This document shows, in pieces, positions 16,969-19,502 of a stretch of DNA of 19,881 nucleotides. Made by a program: the position numbers and the translations under genes. The notes below the pieces were generated by a model. The model was not told where the DNA came from, ran no database searches, and saw only the letters and a program-made list of their open reading frames with translations. The DNA comes from Escherichia coli (GTDB taxonomy: Bacteria > Pseudomonadota > Gammaproteobacteria > Enterobacterales > Enterobacteriaceae), in assembly GCF_003334785.1 (NCBI RefSeq), contig NZ_QOWV01000032.1; one strand, given 5' to 3'. Every line of letters begins with the position of its first letter. Position 1 is the first letter of the stretch.

Positions 16969-19497
16969 ATGAGTACTTACCTGAAATCAATAATTAAAAA
17001 ATTATCTCCAGAAAGCCGAAGTACTCTGGATTCTGCTATTAATTACGCAATATCACGATCACACCATGAAGTCGATTGTTTGCATTTTCTGTGGAAGCTA
17101 TTACAGGAACATAAGTCAATAACCGAAAAGTTTTCTGAACTGTCTTTATTTAACCCTGACAGGGTCCTGCATGCCATTGAAAGTGAGCTCATCCTTATCA
17201 ATACAGCGTCACAATCCTCACCTGTATTTTCTGAGTCGATGCAAACTCTGCTGGAAAAAACATGGATACATGCCAGCACTAAATGGCAGTCTAATCATAT
17301 AGATATCCCTGTCTTGTTGACCACTCTGATTACTCTCAGAGATTCAATATTACCTTACAATGTGGTCGGGGCGTTATATTGTGATGTGGATGTTGCAGAG
17401 AAATTTCTGCTATCTTTGTCTGTAAAAACAGAGCATTCTTCTCATCGTGCCACGGATAATGCGCCACATGAATATATCAACAAATATACTGAAAATTTCT
17501 CTTTGCTGGCCGAAACAGGGAAACTGGATCCTGTTACTGGCAGAGAGAAGGAAATCAGGCAGCTTATCGATATTTTGCTTCGTCGCAGACAGAATAATCC
17601 GATACTGACCGGTGAACCTGGTGTCGGGAAAAGCAGTATTGTTGAAGGTTTAGCCCTGCAAGTTGCATCCGGCCGTGTGCCTGACGCACTGAAGAATGTC
17701 AGGATCCTTGCGCTTAATATGGGCGCTCTGCTTGCGGGGGCCAGTGTCAGAGGGGAATTTGAAAATCGCTTAAAATCGCTCTTAACCGAACTTAATTCTC
17801 TGGATGGTACCGCTATTTTGTTTATTGATGAGGCCCATTCCCTTATCGGTGCAGGAGGACTTCCCGGACAAACGGATGCAGCGAATTTACTTAAGCCTGC
17901 TCTTGCCCGTGGGGAATTGCGCATTATCGCCGCCACGACATGGGGAGAATACAAAAAGTATTTTGAAAAGGACGGCGCATTAGCCCGGCGTTTTCAGATA
18001 GTCAAAGTCACAGAGCCAAATCAGGATGTCACAGCAGGGATGCTACGTTCTCTTTTACCCATGATGGAAAAGCACCATAACGTCTCCATCAGGGAAGAAG
18101 CAATAACTGCCACGGTACATTTATCCGACCGTTATCTGCACGGGCGTCGTCAGCCTGATAAATCGGTCAGTCTGCTGGATACAGCCTGCTCACGGGTTGC
18201 TGTATCTCAGTCCACCTCCCCGGATGCCATTCAGGATCTTGAAGCCTCATTAGCCAGACATCAGGGAGAACTTGCTCTGCTGACACAGGAAAAATCAAAT
18301 GTTCGGCGTCAGGAAATGCTTGTAAATGAAATTGCTCAACTTGAGATGGATCTTGAGCAACTGAAATCAGCATGGCGTCATCAAAGTGAACTGGTTGCCA
18401 GGATACAAAGTACAGATGATGTATCATCAAAGGATATGTACAGAAAAGAACTGGAAAGTGCATACAGGAAAGACAGCCCTATGGTTTTTGAGTGTGTTGA
18501 TAAAAACTGTGTTGCTGATGTCGTGTCAGGGTGGACAGGTGTCCCACTGGGTGTATGCCTTGATAGTGAACAACAAAAAACATCCGGTCTGTTAAGATGT
18601 CTGGAGCAACGGGTTTTGGGGCAACGATATGCTATGTCTGCGATAGCATCACAAATCCTTATTTGCCGGGCAGATCTTAAAGATCCGGTAAAACCCGATG
18701 GGGTATTCTTACTTGCAGGCCCTTCTGGTACCGGCAAAACGGAGACAGCCAGGGCGCTGGCCGAGTTTGTTTATGGGGATGAGAATAAACTCATCACGAT
18801 TAATATGACGGAATTTCAGGAAGCTCACACGGTTTCCACTCTGAAGGGCGCTCCTCCAGGATATGTCGGTTTTGGTCAGGGAGGGACTCTTACCGAAAGA
18901 GTCAGTCATAATCCATACAGTGTTATTCTGCTTGATGAAATCGAAAAAGCACATCCGGATGTTCTGGAGTTCTTTTTTCAGATATTCGATTTGGGGATCA
19001 TCGAGGATTCTGAAGGTAAAATGGTGTCTTTCCGGGATTGTCTCATCATAATGACATCCAACCTTGCCAGTGAAAAGATAACGAGCATATGGGATGAGGG
19101 GGAGATCGATAAAGACAAAATAAAAGAAATGGTGCTTCCTTTATTTAATGAACATTTTGGCACCGCTTTCATGGGAAGAGCGAACTTAATTCCGTTCACT
19201 CCGTTGCATACCAGAACACTCAGGGATATCGCAATTATTAAAATTGATAAGATCTGCCAGCGTTTTGAACGGGCATCTGGTCAGATGTATAAAATAGACT
19301 ACAGTGACACTCTTATTGACTGGATTACACATCATTGTCAATGTGACAAGTCTGGTGCGAGGGATATCGATGCCGTACTTAACAGAACGGTTCTCCCTGT
19401 CCTTGCCAGATATTTAATTGACTCTGAAAATAATAAAACAACAAAAAAAATAAGAATGTCAGTAAGAAAAAACAATATTACGTTACGTAATTCGTAA
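16969..19497 (+). CDS. clpV: ClpV (TssH) AAA+ ATPase for sheath recycling
   Basis: 842 aa. Clp N-domain followed by two AAA+ modules: Walker A1 GEPGVGKSS, Walker B1 ILFIDEAHSL, Walker A2 GPSGTGKTE, Walker B2 ILLDEIEKAH. AGGAG RBS within the end of tssM. Confidence 0.96.
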   Translation: MSTYLKSIIKKLSPESRSTLDSAINYAISRSHHEVDCLHFLWKLLQEHKSITEKFSELSLFNPDRVLHAIESELILINTASQSSPVFSESMQTLLEKTWIHASTKWQSNHIDIPVLLTTLITLRDSILPYNVVGALYCDVDVAEKFLLSLSVKTEHSSHRATDNAPHEYINKYTENFSLLAETGKLDPVTGREKEIRQLIDILLRRRQNNPILTGEPGVGKSSIVEGLALQVASGRVPDALKNVRILALNMGALLAGASVRGEFENRLKSLLTELNSLDGTAILFIDEAHSLIGAGGLPGQTDAANLLKPALARGELRIIAATTWGEYKKYFEKDGALARRFQIVKVTEPNQDVTAGMLRSLLPMMEKHHNVSIREEAITATVHLSDRYLHGRRQPDKSVSLLDTACSRVAVSQSTSPDAIQDLEASLARHQGELALLTQEKSNVRRQEMLVNEIAQLEMDLEQLKSAWRHQSELVARIQSTDDVSSKDMYRKELESAYRKDSPMVFECVDKNCVADVVSGWTGVPLGVCLDSEQQKTSGLLRCLEQRVLGQRYAMSAIASQILICRADLKDPVKPDGVFLLAGPSGTGKTETARALAEFVYGDENKLITINMTEFQEAHTVSTLKGAPPGYVGFGQGGTLTERVSHNPYSVILLDEIEKAHPDVLEFFFQIFDLGIIEDSEGKMVSFRDCLIIMTSNLASEKITSIWDEGEIDKDKIKEMVLPLFNEHFGTAFMGRANLIPFTPLHTRTLRDIAIIKIDKICQRFERASGQMYKIDYSDTLIDWITHHCQCDKSGARDIDAVLNRTVLPVLARYLIDSENNKTTKKIRMSVRKNNITLRNS

Positions 19498-19502
19498 CGT
19501 AA
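19478..19502 (+). terminator. perfect 10-bp inverted repeat (5-nt loop) overlapping the clpV stop codon; possible weak terminator or protein-binding palindrome
   Basis: TTACGTTACG (19478-19487) / loop TAATT / CGTAACGTAA (19493-19502) are exact reverse complements. AT-rich stem, and no immediately adjacent U-run (TGTTTT lies ~20 nt downstream). Confidence 0.3.

Follow-up and report, generated by a model that had tools for sequence, protein, structure and literature searches.

What does a perfect palindrome do when it lies across the stop codon of a gene? The question is raised by a 19,881-nucleotide (nt) stretch of Escherichia coli DNA (hereafter the window; contig NZ_QOWV01000032.1), a plasmid type VI secretion system (T6SS) locus whose + strand bears the whole gene row from tssB to tssH, in which an exact inverted repeat covers the end of tssH (clpV). 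An earlier reading of the sequence, here called the original prediction, had proposed three functions for this repeat: a weak terminator, an RNA-stability element or a binding site for a dimeric protein. None of the three gains support from the comparison presented here, because the 10-bp stem is found in one shallow clade, varies in close relatives, shows no significant covariation and has no second copy. On balance, the palindrome appears to be a young, lineage-restricted and neutral by-product of local repeat-driven mutation, and no selected element. What was observed is the structure of the repeat, how narrowly it is distributed, how much it varies and that its pairs do not covary significantly; we infer the mutational route and its consequences.

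The inverted repeat occupies positions 19478-19502. Sequence reading and a repeat finder agree on its composition, TTACGTTACG (19478-19487), the loop TAATT and CGTAACGTAA (19493-19502), with two arms of 10 nt each that are 100% complementary and separated by 5 nt, as the original prediction had stated. Its placement of the clpV stop codon within the stem was equally correct: the TAA that closes the open reading frame (ORF) 16969..19497 occupies 19495-19497 and so falls in the 3' arm. The flanking A19477 and C19503 are unpaired on the + strand, and the sense stem contains 4 G-C pairs out of 10, with A-U at its base. The original prediction had also called for a folding-energy calculation, which returned a stable hairpin of -11.3 kcal/mol for the sense 25-mer RNA (z = -5.1 versus shuffles of the same 25-mer); RNA folding makes this hairpin the centroid structure in a 121-nt context.

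The palindrome is therefore real and exact, yet merely mildly unusual given that the whole window was scanned. A count of perfect stems (10 bp or longer, loops of 3-8 nt) in shuffled 19.9-kb windows gave 0.16 (mononucleotide shuffles) to 0.24 (first-order Markov) such palindromes per window, the probability of at least one being 0.13-0.18. The real window holds two. Part of the complementarity, moreover, is supplied by the tail codons of tssH: the Leu codon TTA, when reverse-complemented, gives the stop TAA, so that TTACG/CGTAA arises from TTA CGT AAT TCG TAA. At 5824-5857, 23 nt past the tssF stop and just inside tssG (5792..6724), lies the other palindrome, which is the longer of the two. 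Its A/T-rich arms, TTTTTTCAATAAA-gttcgggt-TTTATTGAAAAAA, form 13 perfect base pairs with a folding energy of -12.5 kcal/mol (z = -3.9).

Distribution and variability of the hairpin

The exact 57-nt context of the palindrome is present in 12 of 5,426 complete E. coli genomes, every time at plasmid tssH. When the palindrome itself was sought (20 specified bases, any loop), 100,044 species genomes and IMG/VR both gave 0 matches, and within the window there is no second exact copy of an arm. A dispersed repeat or recurring binding motif, repetitive extragenic palindromes (REP) and bacterial interspersed mosaic elements (BIME) included, was rejected on these grounds: one copy in the window, occurrence at E. 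coli tssH only and 0 matches elsewhere. No Rfam family is found at the palindrome; the sole overlapping match, CrcZ, reaches 21 bits where the gathering score is 95 and was discarded as spurious, since the A-rich tail drives it.

Alleles of tssH from 12 lineages, with 78-100% identity across the final 1.3 kb of the gene, were compared; they constitute a small set that is probably recombining, recombination among plasmid loci being possible. Coordinates with an L number below refer to the compared sequences. The STEC299 allele is identical to the window. In ST865 (~96% identical; p1_ST865, L012 1340-1380) a G to A change in the top, loop-closing pair also replaces R by H, and one G is deleted just past the stem. 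WP7 (~98% identical; pWP7-S17-ESBL-04_2, L016 1340-1385) carries a 2-nt insertion in the loop, which becomes the 7-nt TAATCGT, and the resulting frameshift extends the tssH product by 5 amino acids (aa). Larger changes affect the stem itself. NMBU (~96% identical) is without 13 nt, GTAACGTAACTGG, and retains a 6-bp stem GTTACG/CGTAAC of -6.3 kcal/mol. The same 13 nt are missing from the deeper Salmonella Newport, M18 and WP9 lineages, in which only 6-bp ATTACG/CGTAAT-like cores are left, some of them containing G-U pairs; such short stems fold at -6.3 to -2.2 kcal/mol, with M18 at -2.2. RM9088, RHB11 and RHB38 keep about 4 A-U pairs. Hairpin stability thus ranges from -11.3 to -2.2 kcal/mol across the alleles.

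A neighbour-joining tree built from the final 1.3 kb of tssH places the short form among the outgroups, and the long palindrome form is therefore probably derived. At least five length variants occur among the compared alleles, three of them within ~4% divergence, which points to the tssH tail as an indel hot spot under little constraint. It offers a clear example of such a hot spot making and destroying hairpins and even shifting the end of a reading frame.

How the long form could have originated is suggested by the repeats of this region. Many alleles contain a 5-6-bp inverted repeat, (A/G)TTACG-TAATT-CGTAA(T/C), which follows simply from the tail codons of tssH. In the clade of the window, a 13-nt insertion in the GTAAC-repeat zone would have set a second CGTAA opposite the pre-coded TTACG-TTACG, a 5' arm also present in NMBU, and thereby produced the perfect 10-bp stem. 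Apart from CTGG, the inserted segment can be read as GTAACGTAA, which reverse-complements the neighbouring TTACGTTAC; GTAAC occurs three times in this zone. The route could have been snap-back copying or a pair of tandem duplications (5 nt and 8 nt), and both explain the data equally well. In the tssH mRNA the stem (-11.3 kcal/mol) should fold only when no ribosome stands on the last codons, because the stop codon lies within it. If the stem hindered 3' exonucleases a little, or slightly delayed ribosomes at termination, this would be incidental.

Pair counting across alleles gave 77.8% paired cells versus 76.3% in shuffles, with 98 of 500 shuffles equal to or above the observed value, and no significant covariation supporting the stem was found among the compared alleles. 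The palindrome does not behave as a conserved cis-regulatory RNA structure: its pairing is no better than in shuffles and its outer 4 pairs are missing outside the clade.

Several observations nevertheless weigh against a neutral origin. The perfect stem is kept in 12 of 12 members of the shallow clade, which carries little weight because these are at least 98.8% identical. One pair covaries, from A-U to G-C, and two lineages, M18 and WP9, keep G-U wobbles that work in the sense RNA only. Finally, the chromosomal aai allele of O104:H4 also possesses a lengthened hairpin at the same place, of 13 bp and -9.7 kcal/mol (z = -3.3). This allele (L007 3183-3212) carries a 14-nt insertion, TTGCAACTCGTAAT, which repeats the preceding 16 nt (ATTACGTAGTTCGCAA) imperfectly and in inverted orientation; a different 13-bp hairpin results and the ORF becomes 6 codons longer. 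Two long forms at one site could reflect selection for a hairpin over the stop codon. That the hairpin was lengthened twice, by 13 nt here and by a 14-nt inverted copy in O104:H4, under selection for an RNA structure that sets ClpV output or protects the 3' end of tssH after cleavage in the spacer, seems to us very unlikely.

More broadly, a functional hairpin of the sense RNA might block 3'->5' exonucleases after cleavage in the spacer, leaving a tssH mRNA that still bears its stop codon, or might slow terminating ribosomes and so tune ClpV. The stable hairpin that dominates the local ensemble would suit such a role, as would the recurrence of some hairpin over the stop in several lineages, including the differently built one of O104:H4, and the wobbles of M18 and WP9 fit no strand other than the sense RNA. 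Against this stand the absence of significant covariation, the spread of stabilities among alleles and the broken or altered stem of close relatives; furthermore, each terminating ribosome melts the stem, since the stop codon lies within it. An RNA stabiliser or a brake on terminating ribosomes is physically possible, unsupported and, in our judgement, rather unlikely. A hairpin tuning ClpV levels would be of modest interest to T6SS specialists; otherwise the question matters little.

Terminator and protein-site readings

No U-rich tract follows the stem on the + strand, where the tail reads CUGGGUAACUCAC and the scan returned no terminator-like site; the original prediction was right to see no textbook intrinsic terminator for tssH. 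A stable stem-loop is present, but the stop codon lies in its 3' arm and genes follow on the same strand. The palindrome is not a terminator for tssH, because there is no U-run, the stop is within the stem and the downstream genes continue; with no U-run, sense transcription should not be terminated.

These downstream genes also correct the view of clpV as the last gene of the operon, which holds for the window only. RefSeq names the ORF tssH in NZ_CP069544.1, an 81-kb plasmid from E. coli FDAARGOS_1248 whose sequence matches the window exactly. There, a truncated copy of the insertion sequence IS600 lies downstream of tssH, and beyond it come a VasL-domain gene and others on the tssH strand; in relatives without IS600 the VasL-domain gene starts ~700 nt past tssH, again on the same strand. 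Hence tssH is not the last gene of the locus.

The prediction considered the U-run of the sense strand and overlooked the minus strand, where a terminator pattern does occur. There the hairpin gains a pair (11, including one G-U), reaches -13.1 kcal/mol and is followed by the tail ATTGTTTTTT with its U-run AUUGUUUUUU. An antisense intrinsic terminator built in this way would stop transcripts coming from the side of the spacer, the intron and the IS element (described below) and would shield the T6SS operon from antisense RNA. It is the sole terminator-like call at the site and has the longest stem among all 25 such calls in the window, and its folding energy adds to the case. There is, however, nothing evident for it to terminate: no minus-strand promoter-like site or gene lies downstream within ~600 nt, either in the window or in an uninterrupted relative. 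The pattern scan is also poorly specific here: it returned 25 sites over the whole window (1-19881) versus 12.7 +/- 4 in shuffles, almost all of them within genes of a locus of 40% G+C. The U-run is itself a coding A-run of Lys and Asn codons; the tail opens with an A, and the stem adjoins it with three A-U pairs. Nor is the arrangement of stem and U-run conserved, since ~10 nt separate the two in the short alleles. We regard an antisense terminator as distinctly unlikely. As for a bidirectional terminator, only the 5' A-tract is present, with no 3' U-tract. A minus-strand ORF of 29 aa (19483..19572), whose stop falls in the 5' arm, was also rejected; it lacks a Shine-Dalgarno sequence, and indels of 13 nt and 1 nt disrupt its frame in relatives.

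The perfect 10+10 bp dyad symmetry would suit a DNA site for a dimeric protein, whether regulator, recombinase or nuclease, or a site forming a cruciform. Such a site is extremely improbable here in view of its position, single copy and lack of conservation: it sits where a gene ends, the next start being ~700 nt away, exists once in the window and in none of the other genomes scanned, and is not maintained across alleles of this locus, which would be expected to share regulators. A transcription-factor operator in particular fits neither this location, which is not promoter-proximal, nor the variation among alleles. For the extrusion of a cruciform, 10-bp arms around 5 nt are short, which counts against this variant. 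If the palindrome is a neutral by-product, as we favour, it should not be annotated as a terminator or regulatory site of this T6SS operon.

The spacer downstream of tssH

The features discussed in this work are collected in Table 1.

Table 1. Position, strand and source of evidence of the features at the 3' end of tssH and in the adjoining spacer
Feature	Position	Strand	Evidence
tssH (clpV) coding sequence, 842 aa, tail ...RKNNITLRNS*	16969..19497	+	ORF list; RefSeq annotation of NZ_CP069544.1
A-rich coding stretch AAAAAACAAT; minus strand reads ATTGTTTTTT directly past the stem, terminator-like antisense only	19467..19476	-	terminator scan, folding
5' arm TTACGTTACG, tandem TTACG-TTACG, coding (ATT ACG TTA CGT)	19478..19487	+	sequence, repeat finder
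Loop TAATT	19488..19492	+	sequence
3' arm CGTAACGTAA, holds the tssH stop TAA at 19495-19497	19493..19502	+	sequence, ORF list, repeat finder
13-nt indel zone (GTAACGTAACTGG or equivalent CGTAACTGGGTAA), gives the outer 4 stem pairs; three GTAAC copies	19494..19515	+	alignments
Decayed second hairpin GAGCCATAAATGTCTGGTTT	19548..19567	+	comparison with M18
Group II intron 5' fragment (D1-D3)	19579..19804	+	Rfam matches in relatives, blastn to full introns, alignment
Left end of IS600 (IS3 family) copy, interrupting the spacer	19805..19881	+	sequence comparison

Judged by sequence similarity, the spacer between tssH and vasL consists mostly of the decayed 5' part of a group II intron, comprising domains D1-D3. 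It is common to all plasmid and chromosomal relatives of this T6SS (L002 3280-3900, L004 3267-3640). The Rfam models of group II intron D1-D4 match above their gathering scores in strain M18 and pNMBU-W12E19_01 (45.1 bits vs 32 and 41.7 vs 35), and below the gathering score in the near-identical relative L002. By blastn, the spacer shares 72-79% identity with the 5' RNA portion of introns that encode a reverse transcriptase (RT)/maturase and are found in >1,200 E. coli genomes; CFT073, GE3 and pCD74-2-1 are among the carriers of full introns with RT/maturase ORFs, and the CFT073 copy is probably the E.c.I6 element (PMC3522654). The 5' end of the full introns reads GTGCGCCGGGCATGG, and the alignment places intron position 1 at about window position 19579. 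No D5/D6 match was found in the spacer with Rfam, and the ribozyme is therefore dead. IS600 interrupts the fragment at 19805; in the full plasmid this copy is truncated and the spacer resumes ahead of the VasL-domain gene (L001 9870-10260). The 'intergenic' DNA after tssH is thus a dead group II intron fragment interrupted by IS600, following a gene that does not close its operon.

Terminator-targeting group II introns of the class C type use stem-loops as homing signals (PMC1702495, PMC3522654), and the full introns examined here (L008-L010) start 8-10 nt after strong hairpins, as reported for this type (PMC1702495). In the alignment, intron-like sequence begins ~77 nt past the end of the palindrome, which accordingly lies outside the intron remnant and, at such a distance versus 8-10 nt, was rejected as a homing hairpin. 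A second hairpin lies closer. It is intact in M18 (8 bp; GAACCAGA-aatg-TCTGGTTC; L004 3236-3255), with ~13 nt between it and the intron-like start, whereas the copy of the window has decayed (CCATA). Since full-length relatives sit 8-10 nt after strong hairpins, it may be the stem-loop to which the intron homed, and possibly it was the original 3' hairpin of tssH.

Other observations concern the spacer and the locus at large. A perfect 10-bp inverted repeat at 19615-19645, CCGTTATTCA/TGAATAACGG, with an 11-nt loop and -19.8 kcal/mol in context, is a D1 hairpin of the intron fragment; full introns carry GTTCTTCA/TGAAGAAC there, a compensatory A-T/C-G difference. The same intron-derived spacer holds a pseudogene of an IS110-family (RNA-guided) transposase in the WP9/ESBLEC_MG32 lineage (L005 3480-4259; L006 3465-4244), and at the aai locus of O104:H4 it is followed by a transposase with an apical loop-internal loop (ALIL) pseudoknot and a full group II intron. 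Further upstream, 12600-12936 is an unannotated gap of ~340 nt between tssK and a DotU-family gene, whose start is uncertain as suggested by a longer mechanical ORF, 12856..13554.

Comparison with known hairpin systems

With terminator-targeting group II introns the locus shares a hairpin upstream of intron sequence in the same orientation; it differs in that the palindrome is ~77 nt away and another hairpin (19548-19567) occupies the expected position. The Rho-independent terminators of E. coli likewise have a stem-loop where a gene ends, and on the minus strand the palindrome even has a U-rich tail. In contrast to them, it has no sense U-run, its stem covers the stop codon rather than following it, only 4 of its 10 pairs are G-C with an A-U base, genes follow on the same strand, and on the antisense side nothing evident awaits termination.

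REP hairpins close to a stop codon reportedly stall ribosomes in E. coli (Liang, Rudd and Deutscher 2015), which speaks for a functional hairpin of the sense RNA. The palindrome resembles these and other 3' stabiliser hairpins as a stable RNA hairpin within a few nt of a stop codon, whereas it is single-copy, lacks the REP consensus, is absent from other genomes, is weaker and has the stop within its stem.

Quasi-palindrome and slippage mutation hot spots, in which indels arise by template switching or through repeats, are an established concept. At tssH both direction and mechanism are inferred from a small and probably recombining allele set, which sets this case apart; the likeness lies in the change itself, by which a short imperfect inverted repeat would have become a longer perfect one through the insertion of GTAACGTAA, the reverse complement of TTACGTTAC.

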